Positions 21,589 to 56,449 of a stretch of DNA of 64,000 nucleotides are shown one piece after another. Numbering within the stretch: the first letter of the stretch is position 1; every line of letters starts with the position of its first letter. The stretch comes from Streptomyces griseus (GTDB lineage: Bacteria > Actinomycetota > Actinomycetes > Nanopelagicales > Nanopelagicaceae): NCBI GenBank assembly GCA_945865365.1, contig CAMBDL010000006.1:2994-66993 (forward strand), in the 5' to 3' direction. Under the pieces are notes generated by a model. It was not told the DNA's origin. It searched no databases and was given only the letters and a program-made list of their open reading frames with translations. Made by a program: the position numbers and the translations under genes.

Positions 21589-21861
21589 ATGAATAAGAAA
21601 GAGATCGTTGCAAAGCTAGCCGCAGATTCAAAGCAGTCAGAGAGTGCTGTCTCATCAGTTCTAGAGGCACTTGAAGGTCTAGCTATTTCAATGCTTCAAA
21701 GCAAGGAGAAGTTGGTTCTCCCAGGTTTTATCTCAATTGAGGCAGTTGCACGTGCTGCTCGTTCAGGCCGTAACCCACAAACAGGCGCAGTTCTGCAGAT
21801 TCCTGCACGCACTGGTGTGAAGGTTAGTGCTGGAACAAAGCTTAAGAAGGCAGTTGCTTAA
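21589..21861 (+). CDS. hup: HU family DNA-binding protein (short, no PAKK tail)
   Basis: LPGF...RAARSGRNPQTG...IPA motif; GGAG SD. Confidence 0.93.
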   Translation: MNKKEIVAKLAADSKQSESAVSSVLEALEGLAISMLQSKEKLVLPGFISIEAVARAARSGRNPQTGAVLQIPARTGVKVSAGTKLKKAVA

Positions 21862-26190: not shown

Positions 26191-27104
26191 CGCTTCTGCT
26201 CCCATTTGCTAACCTTGCGGCGCAGCAAAGCATAAAGACTCATCACGATAACGACAACGATGACCATGAATAGTGATAGAGATTTTGCTTCGGCGGGATT
26301 AGATCCACCAGTCTCGCTTGTAAGTGCCGTTGCGATTTCAAGAGGCGTAAGAAAATCCGATAAATTAATAAGAGTATTAGCCGTTGCATATGCTGAAAAT
26401 GAGTTAACAAAGAGTAGTAAAGCCGCGCCGACAAATGATGGTGTCAAAATTGGAATTCCGATACGCAGCCAGTATTCATAGGCTTTACCACCGAGGGCAT
26501 CGGATGCTTCGCGCCACTGTGGCTTCAAATTCTCTAACGTTGGCAAGAAGACCAAAACCATCAGTGGAATTTGGAAAAACGTGTAAAGCACACTCAAGCC
26601 AGTCATCCCGTAGAGCCAGGTTGAATCAGCTAAGAAAGTATTTGGTAAGAACTTCACTGCCAGGGTCGATACTAAGCCGTTGAAACCAAAAGTTGCCAAG
26701 AATGCAAAGGTCAACATAACGCCGCCGAACTGTGCCAAAACGCTACTAAGTGCAACGGAGATCTTATAAAAAACTCCACCAGGCTTTCCTGTTGCTATCG
26801 CCCAAGCAAAGAGACCACCCAGCACAGCTCCCACAAGTGCAGTCTTCGTCGAAAGTTCAAGTGAGTTTGCAAAGGCATGACGTGCAATGGGGGAGTTAAA
26901 GACTTCTCTTAACTCTGTTGTACTGAACTTGCCATAGTTATCCTTGAGTGCACCAGAGATTACATTCCAGGTTGGATATAAAAGGAAGAGACCAGTTAAA
27001 AGTAAAAACGGTAAGACTCCTAGATAGGCGCTCTTACTGCGCCAATACCGAGAACCGGTCCTGCCAATGGCAGAACCGGTTCCCTTGTATTGAAGCTGAG
27101 TCAA
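26187..27104 (-). CDS. ABC permease (PotB-like)
   Basis: WREASDALGG EAA motif, multiple TM segments. Confidence 0.9.
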   Translation of the reverse strand: MTQLQYKGTGSAIGRTGSRYWRSKSAYLGVLPFLLLTGLFLLYPTWNVISGALKDNYGKFSTTELREVFNSPIARHAFANSLELSTKTALVGAVLGGLFAWAIATGKPGGVFYKISVALSSVLAQFGGVMLTFAFLATFGFNGLVSTLAVKFLPNTFLADSTWLYGMTGLSVLYTFFQIPLMVLVFLPTLENLKPQWREASDALGGKAYEYWLRIGIPILTPSFVGAALLLFVNSFSAYATANTLINLSDFLTPLEIATALTSETGGSNPAEAKSLSLFMVIVVVIVMSLYALLRRKVSKWEQKR

Positions 27105-27122
27105 TGAATCAGATCTCAGTTT

Positions 27123-28253
27123 TTAGTTTGTTCCTACAGCTGCTGGCCACGCAGTCTTAAGATATGCGCGAGCCTTTGTTGTCTGATCAGCAGTTGCCTT
27201 TTCAGCAAGTACCTTGCTGTTTCCGATTGCCGCTTTACCAGCTGCAGATGCACGGCCAGTCTTTAGAAGCCATACCCATAGCGTTGGTGTGGCGCCACCG
27301 GATGCAAATACTGTTGCACCTGTTTCGCCAAGTGTGTATTCCATCCAAAGGCGAGCACATGCTGGATGTGGTGCCCATGCTGAAACTGCGCTGTTATAGG
27401 TAGATCCAACTGCAGCAGGGGTGTACATCTTCCATACCTTGCCAGCAGCAGCCATAGCCTTGATAACTCCAGCTTGGATGTAGCCATTGTCAATAACAAC
27501 TGGAGTCTGACCAGATGCAATTGTTGCCTCGGTTGGGTTGACGTTAATGAAGTTACCGGCAGCCTTCAACTTAGCGAAGAACTCCACGCCCTTTGTGACG
27601 TCATCAAATGATCCACCAACTGCCTTATTGATCATGAAGATACCGTTCATGGCAGCAGATGAACCTAGTGGGTCACCGTTCAGAGCAATCTTGCCCTTGA
27701 ACTTTGGATCCAATAGATCGCTGAGCTTAGTGATTGTGCCAAGGTCGCCGCTATAACCAATTGTCATAGTTCCTGTGTAGTTAGGAGTTACTTCAGCGCT
27801 TGGATCTACTGTTGATGCAAACTGCAAGTATTTCCAATTCTTAACCTTGTATGGTGCAAAAGTCTTTGTGTCTAGGTACTTAACCGCAACGGCCAGACCA
27901 ATGTCGAATACGTCAGGTGAACGGGATGTGCCCTTATTTGTTACTGCGGCATCGATCTCTTCCTGAGAAGAGCCTTCTGGGTTAGCTTCATCGATCTTCA
28001 CGCCGTATGTCTTAGCAAATCCTGTAATCATGTCACCGTAGTTTGCCCAGTAATGTGGCAGTGCGATGACGTTGAGTTGTCCCTCTTTTTTACAAGCCGC
28101 TGCAAGTCCAGTCAGACCTCCGCCTTGGGAGGCAGATGTAATAGTTGCATAGTTAACCTTTGCAGACGCTGCCGTAATACCTACTGCTGGAATCGCAAGT
28201 GCTACAGCAACTGCTGCAACTACGGATCCCGTAGTGAGTTTTGAAAACTTCAC
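27123..28253 (-). CDS. ABC substrate-binding protein (PotD/AfuA-like fold)
   Basis: KKEGQLNVIALP..WANYG, APHPACARLW; AGGAGG SD; signal peptide ending ASA. Confidence 0.88.
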   Translation of the reverse strand: MKFSKLTTGSVVAAVAVALAIPAVGITAASAKVNYATITSASQGGGLTGLAAACKKEGQLNVIALPHYWANYGDMITGFAKTYGVKIDEANPEGSSQEEIDAAVTNKGTSRSPDVFDIGLAVAVKYLDTKTFAPYKVKNWKYLQFASTVDPSAEVTPNYTGTMTIGYSGDLGTITKLSDLLDPKFKGKIALNGDPLGSSAAMNGIFMINKAVGGSFDDVTKGVEFFAKLKAAGNFINVNPTEATIASGQTPVVIDNGYIQAGVIKAMAAAGKVWKMYTPAAVGSTYNSAVSAWAPHPACARLWMEYTLGETGATVFASGGATPTLWVWLLKTGRASAAGKAAIGNSKVLAEKATADQTTKARAYLKTAWPAAVGTN

Positions 28254-39091: not shown

Positions 39092-39966
39092 CACCATCAC
39101 ACGAGAACGAAAAGGAAACCATGGACACGAGCGTTAAACCAAGTTCACTAGCCGATGTTGCGCAGGCTAAGCCAGCTAAAGTTCCAGGGACTCGGGCAAT
39201 GGGTACTGGTCTTGAAACCCGTGGAGTGCACGCCTGGTTCGGTAAGCACCATGCGCTCTCTGATATCTCTTTAGATTTTGCCGCAGGTACGGTTACCGCC
39301 TTGATTGGACCTTCGGGCTGCGGTAAATCAACTTTTATTCGCACTATTAATCGCATGCACGAGTTCATTCCAACTGCTGCTATGGCCGGTGAAGTCTTAT
39401 TGGATGGTAAAGATGTTTATGCCCCGGGTACGGATGTCACCAAAATCCGTCTTCAAATAGGAATGGTCTTTCAAAAGCCAAATCCATTTCCTTCAATGAC
39501 TATTGGCGAAAATGTTTTATCAGGCCTCAAACTCGCCCAGATAAAGGTTGATAACAAAGATGATTTGCTTGAAGAAAGTCTTGAGCGCGCGGGTTTATGG
39601 AGTGAAGTGAAGGATCGCTTAGGCGCTCACGGTGGTTCCCTCTCTGGTGGCCAGCAACAGCGCTTATGTATTGCTCGTGCCTTAGCTGTGCGACCACAAG
39701 TCTTATTAATGGATGAGCCATGCTCTGCCCTTGATCCAGGATCAACGCTTCGTATCGAAGAGACGATTCGTCACTTATCTGACAGCATGACAATCATTAT
39801 TGTCACTCACAACATGCAACAGGCGGCACGTGTATCTGACTACACCGCCTTCTTTTTGTCCGACGGTGGCCCTGGACAGATGATTGAGGTTGCGCCTACA
39901 AGTGAGATCTTCTCACGCCCTCAGGACAAGCGCACGGAAAACTACGTAACTGGGCGTTTCGGATAG
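39088..39966 (+). CDS. pstB: Phosphate ABC ATPase PstB
   Basis: [38 protein letters not shown]. Confidence 0.96.
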
Positions 39967-39968
39967 TC

Positions 39969-40060
39969 ATTTACCTACTGTTCACTTAGAAGTCGAAGAG
40001 CGTTTGGATTCCGAGCGCTCTTCGTTCATTTATCTTCCATATGTTTACCCCGTATTTCAA
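39969..40060 (+). promoter_or_regulatory. PHO-box-like repeats upstream of pstS
   Basis: ATTTACC/GTTCACT at 39969/39980; GTTCATT at 40024; GTTTACC/ATTTCAA at 40043/40054. Confidence 0.55.
39994..40030 (+). terminator. Stem-loop after pstB (terminator or mRNA stabiliser)
   Basis: CGAAGAGCG-TTTGG-ATT-CCGAG-CGCTCTTCG followed by TTCATT. Confidence 0.7.
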
Positions 40061-40083
40061 ACATACCTACAAAGGGGAAAAAA

Positions 40084-41238
40084 TTGAGAATTTCAAAGTT
40101 GGCGAAAGTTGCATCACTTGCACTCGCGTTTGGTTTAGTAGCAGGTTCACCTGCTTATGCAGTTGATCTTCAAGGCTCGGGAGCTTCATTCCCAGCACTG
40201 CTTATTGAAGGATGCAAGGCTGGCTTCGCTACAAGCGATGGTGGAGCAAACTCATTTGTTTACGCATCATCATCTTCAGGTACAGGTCAAGCAAACTCAG
40301 ATAAAAAAATTGGTGATTTTTGGATGTCAGATGGTGCTTACACAGCAGCCACAAAGCGTGCTTCGCTTATCCATGTGCCACTAGTGGCTGCACCAATTGC
40401 AATTTTGCACAACTTGCCATCTTCAAAGACACTCCAGTTGTCGGCTTCGACTATCGCTGGAATCTTTGGTGGAACAATTACTCGTTGGAATGATCCAGCA
40501 ATTTATGCCGATAACAACCGCAAGACTTCAGTTGTTGTCTATAATCTAGATGCCAATGGAAACCCTAAGAAAGATGCAAAGGGCAATCCAATTGTTCTTC
40601 GCACAAAGACTGTTTCATCAAACTATCCACTACCTAATAAGCCAATCAAAGTTATCTATCGCGCTGATTCATCAGGAACATCTGAAAACTTTACAAATTA
40701 CTTAGCAAAATCAGCCTCTGCCGTATGGACCAAGGCTAAGAACAAGGTCTTTAAAGACTCTTTCCCTGGCGATATCAATTCAGTGGCTAACCTAGGTCGT
40801 GTTGTTGGTGCAAATTCTTCAACTGGTGTGGCACAAATGGTGGGTAAGACTCCTTACTCAATTACATATGCCGAAGTTAACTATGCAGAAGCAAACAAGC
40901 TAAAAATTTCGAATGTAATTAATCCAACTGGAGCATCAGTAATTCCTAACTCAACTGGTGTTGGAGCATTTCTGGCATCAGCTACACAAGATGCCAACGG
41001 CTTCTTGACATATGACTATGCAACTAAAGAGCCAGGCGCTTACCCACTGGGTATCGTCTCTTACATGCTTGCAGATACTGCATATGCAACTAAGGCTCAA
41101 GCAGATGCTGTGAAAGCTGTGGCAACCTATATTTTGAGCTCTAAGTGCTCAAACGATGTCGGTAAAGCTCTTGGCTTCAGCGTTATCGATGGAGCACTTC
41201 TTGCGAAGTCACTCTCTCAGGTAGCAAAGATCGGTTAA
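40084..41238 (+). CDS. pstS: Phosphate-binding protein PstS
   Basis: GSGASFP, RWNDPAI, RADSSGTS, AYPL; TTG start with GGGG SD. Confidence 0.92.
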   Translation: MRISKLAKVASLALAFGLVAGSPAYAVDLQGSGASFPALLIEGCKAGFATSDGGANSFVYASSSSGTGQANSDKKIGDFWMSDGAYTAATKRASLIHVPLVAAPIAILHNLPSSKTLQLSASTIAGIFGGTITRWNDPAIYADNNRKTSVVVYNLDANGNPKKDAKGNPIVLRTKTVSSNYPLPNKPIKVIYRADSSGTSENFTNYLAKSASAVWTKAKNKVFKDSFPGDINSVANLGRVVGANSSTGVAQMVGKTPYSITYAEVNYAEANKLKISNVINPTGASVIPNSTGVGAFLASATQDANGFLTYDYATKEPGAYPLGIVSYMLADTAYATKAQADAVKAVATYILSSKCSNDVGKALGFSVIDGALLAKSLSQVAKIG

Positions 41239-43971: not shown

Positions 43972-44086
43972 GCCCGTGACCTGTTGCCACACACGGGGAA
44001 GGTAAGGCAGACTCTCTCCACCAATGGGTAAGTGTGGGGTTAGTCGACTCTTCACATATACCCAATTAACCCCTCAAGGAGGACTA

Positions 44087-45931
44087 ATGAAGTTACATCG
44101 CAGCGCAAAATTTGCGTTAGCAATTACAGCTTCTGCGGCTTTGGCAGTATCACTACTGACTCCAGCCCAGGCTGCAACACGTTCGACTGTTATTCTGCAT
44201 GAGACAAACCCAATCACTGGTTTGAACTGCAGCCTTTCAGCTACGAACTCAACGACATGTTCTGCTGTCGGATACCTACAAGGTAACGGCTTTAACTATT
44301 ACAACGATAAAAAAGAGCTTGTCAAGAACACAGTTTTTGGTTCATACAAGATCGTTAAGAACTCTGCTACTGACTTCCGTACAGCATGGACAGTTAATCC
44401 AGGCCGTGTGTGGTCAGATGGAACACCTATCACTGGTGAAGACCTTCTTCTCGGACATGTTGCTTCAAGCAATGCCTATTCAAAGGCAGCTGGCTTAGGA
44501 GATCCAGAGAGCAAGACAGAAACACCTGCATTTAATGGCCTTGGCTATTCAGGTGTCTACAACGACAATATTGTTGGCGAGCCAACACTGTCTGCTGACA
44601 AGATGACAGTAACTCTTCGCTTCAAGAAGCCAATTGCTAACTGGGATCTCTATGGTCCAGGACCATCAGCAGTACACACAATGGTTTTGATGGCTGAAGG
44701 CAAGAAAGCCCTAGGAACTGTTGCAGAGAACATAGCAGCACGTTCTCGCTTCGTTGCTGCATTTAATGCAAAAGATTCAACTCTGCTCAAGAAGTTGGGC
44801 AATATCTGGACTAACGATTACACCATTATCACTGTTGATAAGACCACCAACCCACTACTTCTAGTAGGTAATGGTGGATTCCTTATTGACAATGCAGTTG
44901 CTAAGACTTCTGTAACTTTGAAGAGGAATCCAAAGTACAACTCTGGCCCAGAATTCACTGGAAACATTGATACTGTTGTATTCAAATTCATTGGAGATGG
45001 CACAGCTGCTGCTCAGGCATTAGCTAACGGCGAACTCGACATCTATGCAGGTCAGGCTACTGCCGATGGTGTTGCATTGCTGAAGAAGATTTCAAACGTT
45101 AACGTAGTTGGTATCAGCAACGTTGCTTACGAGCACTGGGATCTTCACTATGACACTGTTCCTGGAGAAGACCCATACACAGGTCTCTTCTCAGTTAAAG
45201 ATGGAAAGAAGTCAAAGGCGCTTCGCCAGGCATTCTTACTAGGTCTACCACGTGAAGAGATCATGGCAAAGTTGATTGCGCCAATTAATGGCGTGACAAC
45301 TCCTATAGAGTCAACATGGGTATCACCAGGATCTGCTACATACAAGAAGGTAACTGCAGCAAATGGCTCTGCTTTCTACTCACGTGGATCACAAGAGTCA
45401 CGTAACGCATCTGCTTTGAAACTAGTCAAGAAGTACTATCCAAAGGTGCTAGCGAGCCCACTGAAGGTTCGTGTACTTGTCCCAGGAAACAACCCACGTC
45501 GTGCAGCAGAGTTTGCTCTAGCTAAGGCTAACTTGGCTAAGGTCGGCTTTGATCTACAAGGTGAAGTTCGTACTGACTGGCCTTCAAAGCTAGGTAGCTC
45601 AGATTACGATGTTTACTTCTTTGCATGGGTAGCTTCTTCAGTAACCCAGCGCCAATCAGCTGATATTTTTGACACCAATGGTGGAAATAACATCTTGGGT
45701 TACAGTAATCCAGCTGTGGATGCAATCATTGCAACATTAGATTCACCTCTATCTGATGCGACACTTGCAGCCAAGTACATCCAAATTGAGTACCTAACGA
45801 ACAATGATGCAATTACTGCCGGTGTATTCGTACACCCAGGTGTTGTAGCCGTTAACAAGGATCTCAAGAATGTACGACCAGGCCCATTGTCTCCACAGAT
45901 GGTGTGGAACTTCTGGGAGTGGACCTACTAA
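44087..45931 (+). CDS. Oligopeptide ABC substrate-binding protein (family 5)
   Basis: GRVWSDGTPITGED motif; AGGAGG SD before ATG 44087; signal peptide ending AQA. Confidence 0.9.
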   Translation: MKLHRSAKFALAITASAALAVSLLTPAQAATRSTVILHETNPITGLNCSLSATNSTTCSAVGYLQGNGFNYYNDKKELVKNTVFGSYKIVKNSATDFRTAWTVNPGRVWSDGTPITGEDLLLGHVASSNAYSKAAGLGDPESKTETPAFNGLGYSGVYNDNIVGEPTLSADKMTVTLRFKKPIANWDLYGPGPSAVHTMVLMAEGKKALGTVAENIAARSRFVAAFNAKDSTLLKKLGNIWTNDYTIITVDKTTNPLLLVGNGGFLIDNAVAKTSVTLKRNPKYNSGPEFTGNIDTVVFKFIGDGTAAAQALANGELDIYAGQATADGVALLKKISNVNVVGISNVAYEHWDLHYDTVPGEDPYTGLFSVKDGKKSKALRQAFLLGLPREEIMAKLIAPINGVTTPIESTWVSPGSATYKKVTAANGSAFYSRGSQESRNASALKLVKKYYPKVLASPLKVRVLVPGNNPRRAAEFALAKANLAKVGFDLQGEVRTDWPSKLGSSDYDVYFFAWVASSVTQRQSADIFDTNGGNNILGYSNPAVDAIIATLDSPLSDATLAAKYIQIEYLTNNDAITAGVFVHPGVVAVNKDLKNVRPGPLSPQMVWNFWEWTY

Positions 45932-54187: not shown

Positions 54188-54673
54188 ATGCCAGATGAAA
54201 ACGCTACCGCACCCCGCTGGCTTAACTCCACTGAAATGGCGGCCTGGCGCAGTTACATCATCGCTAGTAGGCGCATGTTAGAGGCCCTGGACTCTGATTT
54301 AGATGGACATGATTTAAGTATGGCCGACTATGAGATTTTGGCCCAACTCAGTGATGCACCTGATCGAAAGATGCGGATGAGTGAACTAGCAGAGATTGCG
54401 CTTCTATCGCGCTCGCGTTTATCACATCGAATGAAGGTCATGGAAAAAGCTGGTTGGGTAAAACGTCAAGCCTGCCCTTCAGATAAACGGGGCTATTTTG
54501 CAGTGATGACGGCCAAGGGCTGGAAGGCGATTGTTGCCGCTGCACCTGATCATGTAGCAAGTGTGCGTATTCGATTTGTTGATCATATAAATAAGGCCGA
54601 CCAAGAAGTTCTTGCACAGATTTTTTCGCGCATTGAAAGCTCATTGCGCACAGAGGTATTAGACGAGAAGTGA
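54188..54673 (+). CDS. MarR family regulator
   Basis: RMSELA...SRSRLSH...GWVKR..CPSDKRG. Confidence 0.92.
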   Translation: MPDENATAPRWLNSTEMAAWRSYIIASRRMLEALDSDLDGHDLSMADYEILAQLSDAPDRKMRMSELAEIALLSRSRLSHRMKVMEKAGWVKRQACPSDKRGYFAVMTAKGWKAIVAAAPDHVASVRIRFVDHINKADQEVLAQIFSRIESSLRTEVLDEK

Positions 54674-54686
54674 AAAAAAATCGCAT

Positions 54687-54721
54687 AAAAAAACCCGCCA
54701 CATAGAGTGGCGGGTTTTTTT
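54687..54721. terminator. Bidirectional intrinsic terminator
   Basis: AAAAAAACCCGCCAC-ATAGA-GTGGCGGGTTTTTTT. Confidence 0.93.
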
Positions 54722-54730
54722 AATAGCTAA

Positions 54731-55012
54731 TTACTTAGCTGCTGCCTTCTTGCGACGGCGCTTCTTTGGAGCAGCTGCTGGAGCTGCTGCCTTCTTAGCT
54801 GCCTTCTTACGCTTCTTTGGAGCAGCTTTCTTTGCAGCAGGCTTAGCTGCTGCCTTCTTGCGCTTCTTTGGAGCAGCTTTCTTAGCTGCTGCCTTCTTGC
54901 GCTTCTTTGGAGCTGCTGCTTTAACAGCTGCCTTCTTGCGGCGCTTTGGTGCTACTGCCTTAGCAGCTGCCTTCTTGCGCTTCTTTGGTGCTGCTTTCTT
55001 TGCTGCGGCCAC
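54731..55012 (-). CDS. Stand-alone histone H1-like Lys/Ala/Arg-rich protein
   Basis: 93 aa made only of M/A/K/R/P/V; AGGAG SD; downstream terminator. Confidence 0.85.
   Translation of the reverse strand: MAAAKKAAPKKRKKAAAKAVAPKRRKKAAVKAAAPKKRKKAAAKKAAPKKRKKAAAKPAAKKAAPKKRKKAAKKAAAPAAAPKKRRRKKAAAK
54737..55005 (-). repeat. Imperfect tandem coding repeats (six P-K-[KR]-R..KKAA units)
   Basis: Recurrent GCTGCCTTCTTGCGCTTCTTTGG-like units on the + strand. Confidence 0.85.
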
Positions 55013-55189
55013 GTACTTCTCCTATCGGAATGGTTCGGATCCGTCACCCAAACCTTTTCGTGGATAAGCGTGACATCATTTAAGGGAAAATGCCACATTG
55101 AGAGGCAAAATATTTAGTGCGTGTCGCAAATTCTTTTTCTATTTTTTTATGCATCTTCGGGGAATTTCAAAGAATTCAACTTATTGATT

Positions 55190-56449
55190 TTAAGAGTTTT
55201 CATTTTCGCGAAGTTTGGCAAGGGCATATTCATTGGTTTTTACGTCAAATCGGCGCAATTGCGGCATAAAACCGGCCAGTAGACCAACAACAATCACGCA
55301 GATAACTCCGCCTGAAGTTACCGAAAAAGACAGGCTAGTAACTGCGGCCATGGAAGCTGCGCGCATCTGTCCGGCAAGCGGTCCAATCGAGTATGACAAT
55401 AATTCGATTCCTGCCAATCGTCCACGAAAATTATCGGGAATTGTCTGATTCCACATCGATGATCTAAAGAGTGCACTGACCATGTCCGATGCCCCTGCAA
55501 GAGTCAAAAACAGTAGGACCAGAATCAGAGAGTTCCATATACCGGCTAAAGCAATTGCCGTGCCCCATCCCATAGCTGCCCAAATAATGGCTCGGCCATG
55601 GAATCGATAATTTTTTGTCCAGCCCGATGTCAATGTGATTGCAACCGAGCCAACCGTGCCAGCGGCATACATCAAACCGAGAGCCCATGGAGTTCCTAAT
55701 TCATCGGCCCAAAATGGAATCAATGCAGTTGGCATTGCAAAAAACATTGCCGCCAGATCTACCAAATAAGTTCCTAATAAATCTTGACGGCTACATGCAT
55801 ATCTCACACCATCAATTAAGCCTGCCAGAGATGGCTTTATAGCCTCTTTAGATGCAGGTATAGATCTCACTCGACTAAGGAATATAAGGGAGATAACGAA
55901 CGTGAAAACATCTGCGGCATAACCAACTGGAATTGAGTAGGTTGAAATTATTATTCCGCCAATTGTGGGTCCAACGATTACACCTAACTGCCAACGCAAA
56001 CTCATGAGGGCACTAGCGGCAGGCAGATCAGCGTGCTCGACTAACCGTGGCAAGGCGGCATCGGCACTTGGTCGTTGCAGACCATTGACGGCGGCAAATA
56101 ATCCCGCGACCACATAAATCAGAATCAAGTGGGGCTCGGGCAGTAGGGCGTTAATTAAAAGAATCGAGGTAAGAATCAGCGATGCCGCCTCGGTAGCCCA
56201 GACCATCTTTTTTCGATCCACCGCATCGGCCAAAACTCCACCGTAGAGACCAAAAATAATGAGTGGCAGGATTTCCACGAGGCCGCTCAGACCCACGGCT
56301 ATATAAGAGTGAGTCATCTCTTTAATCTGAAAAGGCACTGCCACGTAGGTGATCATTGAACCCAAGTAAGTGACTAGCCCCGAAGCCCACAAATTGCGAA
56401 AATCCTTATATTTTTTCAGCGGCGATATATCTATCGCATATCTAGACAC
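55190..56449 (-). CDS. MFS transporter (EntS-like)
   Basis: GGVLADAVDRKK motif A, RGRLAGIE. Confidence 0.9.
   Translation of the reverse strand: MSRYAIDISPLKKYKDFRNLWASGLVTYLGSMITYVAVPFQIKEMTHSYIAVGLSGLVEILPLIIFGLYGGVLADAVDRKKMVWATEAASLILTSILLINALLPEPHLILIYVVAGLFAAVNGLQRPSADAALPRLVEHADLPAASALMSLRWQLGVIVGPTIGGIIISTYSIPVGYAADVFTFVISLIFLSRVRSIPASKEAIKPSLAGLIDGVRYACSRQDLLGTYLVDLAAMFFAMPTALIPFWADELGTPWALGLMYAAGTVGSVAITLTSGWTKNYRFHGRAIIWAAMGWGTAIALAGIWNSLILVLLFLTLAGASDMVSALFRSSMWNQTIPDNFRGRLAGIELLSYSIGPLAGQMRAASMAAVTSLSFSVTSGGVICVIVVGLLAGFMPQLRRFDVKTNEYALAKLRENENS

Follow-up and report, generated by a model that had tools for sequence, protein, structure and literature searches.

The window analysed here, a stretch of 64,000 nucleotides from a Ca. 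Planktophila-like acI actinobacterium (Nanopelagicaceae), carries on its minus strand (54731-55012) an ORF for a 93-aa polycation rich in Lys, Arg, Ala and Pro. Judged by its conservation and codon use, this ORF is a real protein-coding gene, and it is very strongly transcribed as a monocistronic unit. The product is a free bacterial H1-like Lys-rich repeat protein, apparently undescribed for acI Actinobacteria. On balance, and with a little better than even confidence, we suggest that it would be an abundant, tail-only nucleoid polycation, similar to the tails of linker histone H1 and HupB, binding and compacting DNA. DNA would then be its main ligand, and it might cooperate in trans with the tail-less HU protein encoded in the same window.

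The ORF has a GTG start and a TAA stop and opens directly with MAAAKK. The protein (A38 K35 R9 P8 V2 M1; 9.7 kDa) is devoid of D, E, F, W, Y, C, G and H and bears a charge of ~+44 at pH 7. Lys and Arg together make up 47% of its residues, compared to ~9% in the long ORFs of the window, which places its composition far beyond chance. It is built of roughly 13-aa units of the type AAPKK(R)KKAAAKK, seen in the DNA as a 39-nt tandem period (4.3 copies over 54842-55010, Tandem Repeats Finder), and the pattern PK[KR]R+KKAA occurs six times, at residues 9, 22, 35, 48, 65 and 82. Among shorter motifs, APKK is present five times, PKKRKK four times, KAAK and KPAA once each, and PAKK not at all. A Shine-Dalgarno sequence (AGGAG, 55023-55019), kept in all aligned relatives, lies 6 nt ahead of the GTG. 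Downstream, a hairpin of 16 pairs followed by a T-run (54722-54686; -25 kcal/mol, z = -7.2) forms a bidirectional intrinsic terminator, serving both the polycation gene and a convergent MarR gene. AlphaFold2 predicted only long extended helices broken at prolines (pTM 0.29), with no globular fold. Re-translation and re-analysis thus agree with a preliminary description of this DNA, which had reported 93 aa with 35 Lys, 9 Arg and no acidic or aromatic residues, six P-K-[KR]-R-KKAA units, a Shine-Dalgarno sequence and terminator belonging to the gene itself, and the lack of a folded domain, the last also reflected in the absence of any Pfam match.

The convergent gene (54188-54673, plus strand; Pfam MarR_2/MarR) encodes a MarR-family regulator and is a constant syntenic neighbour of the polycation gene, while the gene upstream and co-directional with it (55190-56449, minus strand; Pfam MFS_3/MFS_1) encodes an MFS transporter. 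With the neighbouring MarR protein as a probe we recovered 80 species-representative loci, all of them Ca. Planktophila/Nanopelagicaceae (acI freshwater Actinobacteria) and complete genomes among them, and in every locus extending past MarR a K/R/A/P ORF was present in the same convergent position. In this set 38 polycation ORFs, of 76-156 aa, are complete; together with that of the window they start with GTG (33/39) or ATG (6/39), always at the same position. The 32-nt leader core AGGTTTGGGTGACGGATCCGAACCMTTCCGAT was found exactly in at least 120 metagenome contigs and, among the matches listed, is followed by a K/R/A/P ORF wherever the sequence suffices (97 complete ORFs, 61-164 aa). Among these same listed matches, the MFS and MarR neighbour proteins in leader-bearing contigs are 63-94% identical and the MFS gene is missing upstream of the polycation gene in nine loci, which suggests that the polycation gene travels as its own unit. 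A second MarR-neighbour search gave only matches at least 81% identical, and the known spread of the gene is that of the leader-bearing lineages. A distribution survey had been proposed in the preliminary description, and the orthologues at related Ca. Planktophila/Nanopelagicaceae loci are its outcome.

Pooled, the complete copies among the matches listed number 134 (130 distinct; 61-164 aa), with an overall composition of A 39%, K 37%, R 13% and P 9%. Their 16,133 residues include 3 Glu and neither Asp nor aromatics. The commonest repeat period over the 134 copies is 13-14 aa, and the N-terminus (M/V)AAAKK.APKK is common to all orthologues. Length differences among the orthologues are nearly all of whole codons, every indel in the polycation RNA contigs is of 3 nt, and the reading frame is kept across length variants in all copies except one, from a LacPavin MAG. 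In that copy (L072:4880-4935, minus strand) a 32-nt duplication just past the start codon shifts the frame; either a misassembly or an infrequent null allele would account for it. An identical C-terminal peptide, PKKRRRKKAAAK, is encoded by at least six nucleotide versions, in which only the third positions of CGC/CGT and GCA/GCT codons differ. Codon choice within the gene is AAG 89%, GCA+GCT 97%, CGC+CGT 100% and CCA+CCT 100%, compared to window averages of 54%, 62%, 66% and 75%, respectively; it matches the HU gene instead. On the opposite strand there is a 105-aa ORF (54750-55067, plus strand; MRRRFFGAAAG...), longer than the polycation gene, which the repeats keep open in relatives as well and which is a likely source of mis-annotation. 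We rejected it as a real gene, since it has a TTG start and no Shine-Dalgarno sequence and extends into the conserved leader, and take it to be an artefact that mirrors the repeats.

The number of repeats varies between close relatives. Called genes of 93, 106 and 119 aa were found on contigs with an identical MarR protein and with flanks 99.3-99.8% identical to the window; these alleles differ by whole 13-aa units, and a more distant relative carries the same sequence plus three units (132 aa), with the qualification that short-read assemblies struggle at these repeats and some of the length differences may therefore be repeat collapse. The polycation is 126-156 aa long in complete and long-read genomes. 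About 40 of the 80 species-representative MAG contigs end inside the polycation gene or at its 3' edge, and another form of interruption, an N-gap within the gene, is seen at locus L080. The gene is a systematic break point of short-read acI MAG assemblies.

RNA contigs of four lake metatranscriptomes cover only ~54722 to ~55047 of this region, with a summed depth of 1e4-1e6, and the depth on MarR and MFS in the same metatranscriptomes is 0. On the 5' side (5-nt resolution) coverage drops off between 55044 and 55050, only traces reach 55054 and nothing lies farther upstream; contig ends or Illumina adaptor junctions are located at 55043, 55044, 55047 and 55050 in the four metatranscriptomes. 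At the 3' side RNA depth is in the low hundreds or zero in the 54678-54721 bin and zero past that bin. Together, these coverage limits and adaptor junctions indicate a discrete monocistronic transcript with a ~35-nt 5' UTR (55013-55047), ending at the terminator. Since contigs carry no direction, they leave the strand of this RNA to indirect evidence.

In every run the polycation bin was the highest of the window, exceeding the next by >10-fold in all runs and by >100-fold in three of the four runs analysed first. Bin depths were 9,200-140,000 for the polycation gene, with a next-best maximum of 830 (next-best bins at 26.9-28.2 kb and 44.0-45.3 kb, the latter an oppA-like binding protein) and 0-70 for the HU gene, the RNA contig depth of which was 100-1000 times below that of the polycation gene; contig depth is, at the same time, a rough measure of expression and is inflated at the polycation gene, where DNA depth is ~25 times that of the flanks. 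The only other clear RNA stretches in the window were 26903-28170, 39583-40850 and 44001-45900 (the last being the oppA-like gene), with bins up to 830. Since relatives all pile up on the conserved repeats, RNA of two samples was normalised against the matching DNA runs. On the polycation gene DNA depth was 256 and 233, compared to about 2-27 (mostly 4-19) on the flanks, and RNA depth was 12,992 and 13,700, giving RNA/DNA ratios of 51 and 59. The ratio for the oppA-like gene was 1-6 in seven of eight bins and 19 in one; MarR, MFS and the majority of the remaining genes in the 14-kb stretch gave 0. Published work places transporter binding proteins among the acI genes with the highest expression (PMC5574706). 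Very high levels of polycation RNA were seen across many lakes and seasons, so that expression looks constitutive; the level of translation we infer. The preliminary description had held that a lack of detectable expression would speak against the gene, and these ratios, together with the top RNA bin of the window, show instead that it is expressed.

The 65 nt before the start codon are better conserved than their surroundings, with a mean pairwise identity of 89.5% (-65..-1) compared to 64.6% farther upstream (-185..-66); the mean identity of MarR DNA to the window is 76%. The conserved block comprises the near-invariant 5' UTR and ~28 nt upstream of the mapped 5' end (55048-55075, minus strand), and we infer that the latter part serves as the promoter. 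In an alignment of 34 loci this part, GTCACGCTTATCCACGAAAAGGTTTGG, includes the hexamer TATCCA and a DnaA-box-like site, TTATCCACG, at 55067-55059; in two relatives, L045 and L053, this site has the sequence TTGTCCA. For a 5' end at 55047 we were unable to place a canonical -10 box (TANNNT), and the position of TATCCA would suit a transcript start near 55054. A sigma-70 scan returned only a weak site, at 55170-55141, upstream of any RNA. The fold of the 48-nt UTR is no better than those of shuffled sequences (z -1.4); that of a 76-nt leader reaches z -2.3 but spans bases outside the RNA. Across the whole window, nothing in Rfam reached the gathering score, and the sub-threshold matches were terminator-driven.

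Searches with the protein itself were uniformly negative. Hmmscan of the polycation against Pfam-A gave 0 families at E<=10, a count that the composition filters of HMMER may depress by hiding low-complexity matches, and profile scans against NCBIfam and PHROGs gave no match even at E<=10. A phmmer homology search scored 8000 candidates, none of them at E<=1e-3, a result that we attribute to composition correction. In an exact look-up in a collection of 15 billion proteins, 21 sequences (the polycation, 10 orthologues, and antisense and alternative-start ORFs) were absent. Public assemblies carry called products of 93, 106 and 119 aa, without Pfam assignment, yet the exact 93-aa sequence is absent from that collection. 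Literature searches on histone-like proteins in Nanopelagicales and on lysine-rich proteins in acI yielded no description of the polycation. Given the lack of Pfam, NCBIfam, PHROG and phmmer matches and the helices-only model, we consider the protein H1-like by composition and not by demonstrable homology. The H1-like label of the preliminary description therefore holds as far as composition goes, while no profile of Hc1, Hc2 or linker histone matches.

In Actinobacteria, Lys/Ala tails are normally fused to HU, and the polycation could in principle be the remnant of a frameshifted or split hupB, that is, of an HU domain with its tail. We give this explanation virtually no weight. No HU-like sequence is found upstream of the gene in any frame, where a 177-nt spacer is followed by the MFS gene, and the unit, with its own leader and terminator, is intact in >150 loci. 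The only HU gene of the window, at 21589-21861 (plus strand), is 33 kb distant and complete with its own stop; PF00216 (Bac_DNA_binding) occupies residues 1-89 of its 90 aa (E 1.1e-22), in line with the short tail-less HU of the preliminary description. The nearest solved structure to this HU is TF1 of phage SPO1 (E 8e-14), ahead of bacterial HUs, and mycobacterial HupB is absent among the solved-structure matches at E<=1e-5. No tailed close relative of it was present among the 100-320 aa proteins of a 5.8-billion set, in which long matches are <=46% identical; the lone 100% match in this size range was called, at 107 aa, on a contig of 1.5 kb. The preliminary description had presented the polycation gene as stand-alone, and named a hupB fragment as the finding that would overturn this; with MFS as the upstream gene, no HU domain within or upstream of the ORF, and a unit conserved in so many loci, its view can be retained. 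It is likewise very improbable that the abundant product is a non-coding RNA, the frame being a by-product of the repeats, or that the antisense ORF (54750-55067, plus strand) is the actual gene. Like an sRNA, the transcript is short, discrete and present at extreme levels, the repeats hold several frames open, the 105-aa plus-strand ORF among them, and the contigs are strandless. Against this stand a strong and correctly spaced Shine-Dalgarno sequence with a conserved ATG/GTG start, a codon bias typical of highly expressed genes, synonymous-only changes within identical peptides, and the 3-nt indels in RNA contigs. Moreover, the RNA ends match a minus-strand unit, with the 5' end at the conserved leader and the 3' end at the terminator, the plus-strand ORF has the poor start and leader overlap described above, and there is no match to an Rfam family.

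If the gene encodes a protein, the question becomes which polyanion the protein binds. RNA, ribosomes and polyphosphate are equally polyanionic and are thus alternative ligands for a polycation. An association with RNA or ribosomes, as an rRNA/mRNA chaperone, a ribosome-stabilising or hibernation factor, or a substitute for polyamines, is possible but on the whole unlikely. The composition would bind any polyanion, and an mRNA level above that of transporter genes suits a ribosome-stoichiometric partner as well as it suits a nucleoid protein; the closest characterised analogues (HupB tail, Hc2, BpH1 and the AlgP C-terminal domain), however, bind DNA, a length of 61-164 aa that varies within one species would be unusual for a protein occupying a ribosomal site, and the locus is unlinked to ribosomal or translation genes. 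We are more doubtful still about a polyphosphate-binding or tethering role like that of the AlgP C-terminal domain, in which the protein would organise granules or link them to the chromosome. The polycation would bind polyP electrostatically, and polyP granules depend for their spacing on the KPAA-repeat domain of AlgP, which associates with them (PMC9239181). Nevertheless, KPAA occurs only once in the polycation, where PKKRKK dominates, an N-terminal domain like that of AlgP is missing, constant and very high RNA fits a housekeeping function better than a starvation-granule factor, and no ppk linkage was seen at the locus.

Under the favoured reading, that of a DNA-binding nucleoid polycation, the tail-only protein would make many weak electrostatic contacts with the backbone and minor groove of DNA, neutralising charge and bridging or condensing DNA in a very small cell. 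Binding would probably induce folding of its Ala/Lys stretches, which are helix-prone and kinked at prolines. Slippage or recombination, by adding or removing entire 39-nt units, would alter the valency of the polycation. A further-reaching version of this model, which we put forward as speculation and consider rather unlikely as a whole, would make the tail-only polycation, and not HU, the principal chromatin protein of acI/Nanopelagicaceae. It would be an analogue of linker histones or protamines that replaces the fused HupB tail, with a valency adjusted within populations as 13-aa units are added or lost, and with its synthesis set by the near-invariant promoter/leader with the DnaA-box-like site, coupling supply to replication.

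The acI/Nanopelagicaceae are dominant members of lake bacterioplankton. Their cells are tiny, their genomes measure 1.2-1.5 Mb, and genetic work on them is nearly impossible. Were the polycation their main DNA-neutralising protein, it would be a key piece of DNA packaging in streamlined cells; by a charge estimate for a 1.3-Mb genome, ~3,000 copies would neutralise 5% and ~30,000 copies 50%. The gene escapes HMM-based annotation, and its protein would be missed by ordinary proteomics, as trypsin cuts it into peptides of at most 9 residues. Its transcript absorbs a large share of metatranscriptome reads. The polycation stands out for its extreme transcript level, invariant leader and population-level repeat variation, and as a free, unlinked tail it offers a natural experiment on whether an HU body and an H1-like tail must be covalently joined.

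The tails of HupB/MDP1/Hlp of M. tuberculosis and M. smegmatis and of Streptomyces HupS come from the same phylum and are, like the polycation, Lys/Ala/Pro-rich, disordered and H1-like. HupB cannot associate with the nucleoid without its PAKK/KAAK tail (PMC5676037), and the tail of MDP1 is disordered (PMC10810275). In contrast to HupB and HupS, the acI tail is a separate gene, 33 kb from that of HU, with its own promoter region and terminator; its motif, PKK(R)KKAAAKK with Arg clusters, also differs from the HupB repeats (0 PAKK, 1 KAAK), and the HU fold (PF00216) is missing. A likeness to the C-terminal domain of linker histones H1/H5 is seen in the Lys/Ala/Pro composition, in the resemblance of (A)PKK to S/TPKK and in a disordered but helix-prone character; unlike these proteins, the polycation lacks a winged-helix domain (no match to PF00538) and Ser/Thr phospho-sites, and its Arg content is high. 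Pseudomonas AlgP likewise has an Ala/Lys/Pro repeat polycation of H1-tail composition, a DNA-binding, KPAA-repeat H1-like C-terminal domain that also associates with polyP granules (PMC9239181), but it combines an extra N-terminal part with a 154-aa KPAA domain, whereas the acI polycation has one KPAA and no other domain. Chlamydia Hc2 (HctB) and Bordetella BpH1 bind DNA as free-standing proteins of Lys-rich repeats, and repeats gained or lost in frame make their size differ between strains, from 165 to 237 aa in Hc2 and from 182 to 206 aa in BpH1 (PMC2848022). The polycation resembles them in being free-standing, in its short Lys-rich repeats and in its in-frame length change (61-164 aa). It gave no match to the profiles of Hc2 (PF07382) or Hc1/HctA (PF07432) even at E<=10, is shorter and Arg-richer, belongs to another phylum and is built of ~13-aa units, where those of Hc2 and BpH1 are pentamers or 36-mers. 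Finally, Hc2 is stage-specific, whereas the polycation gene is seemingly constitutive and very highly transcribed in situ.
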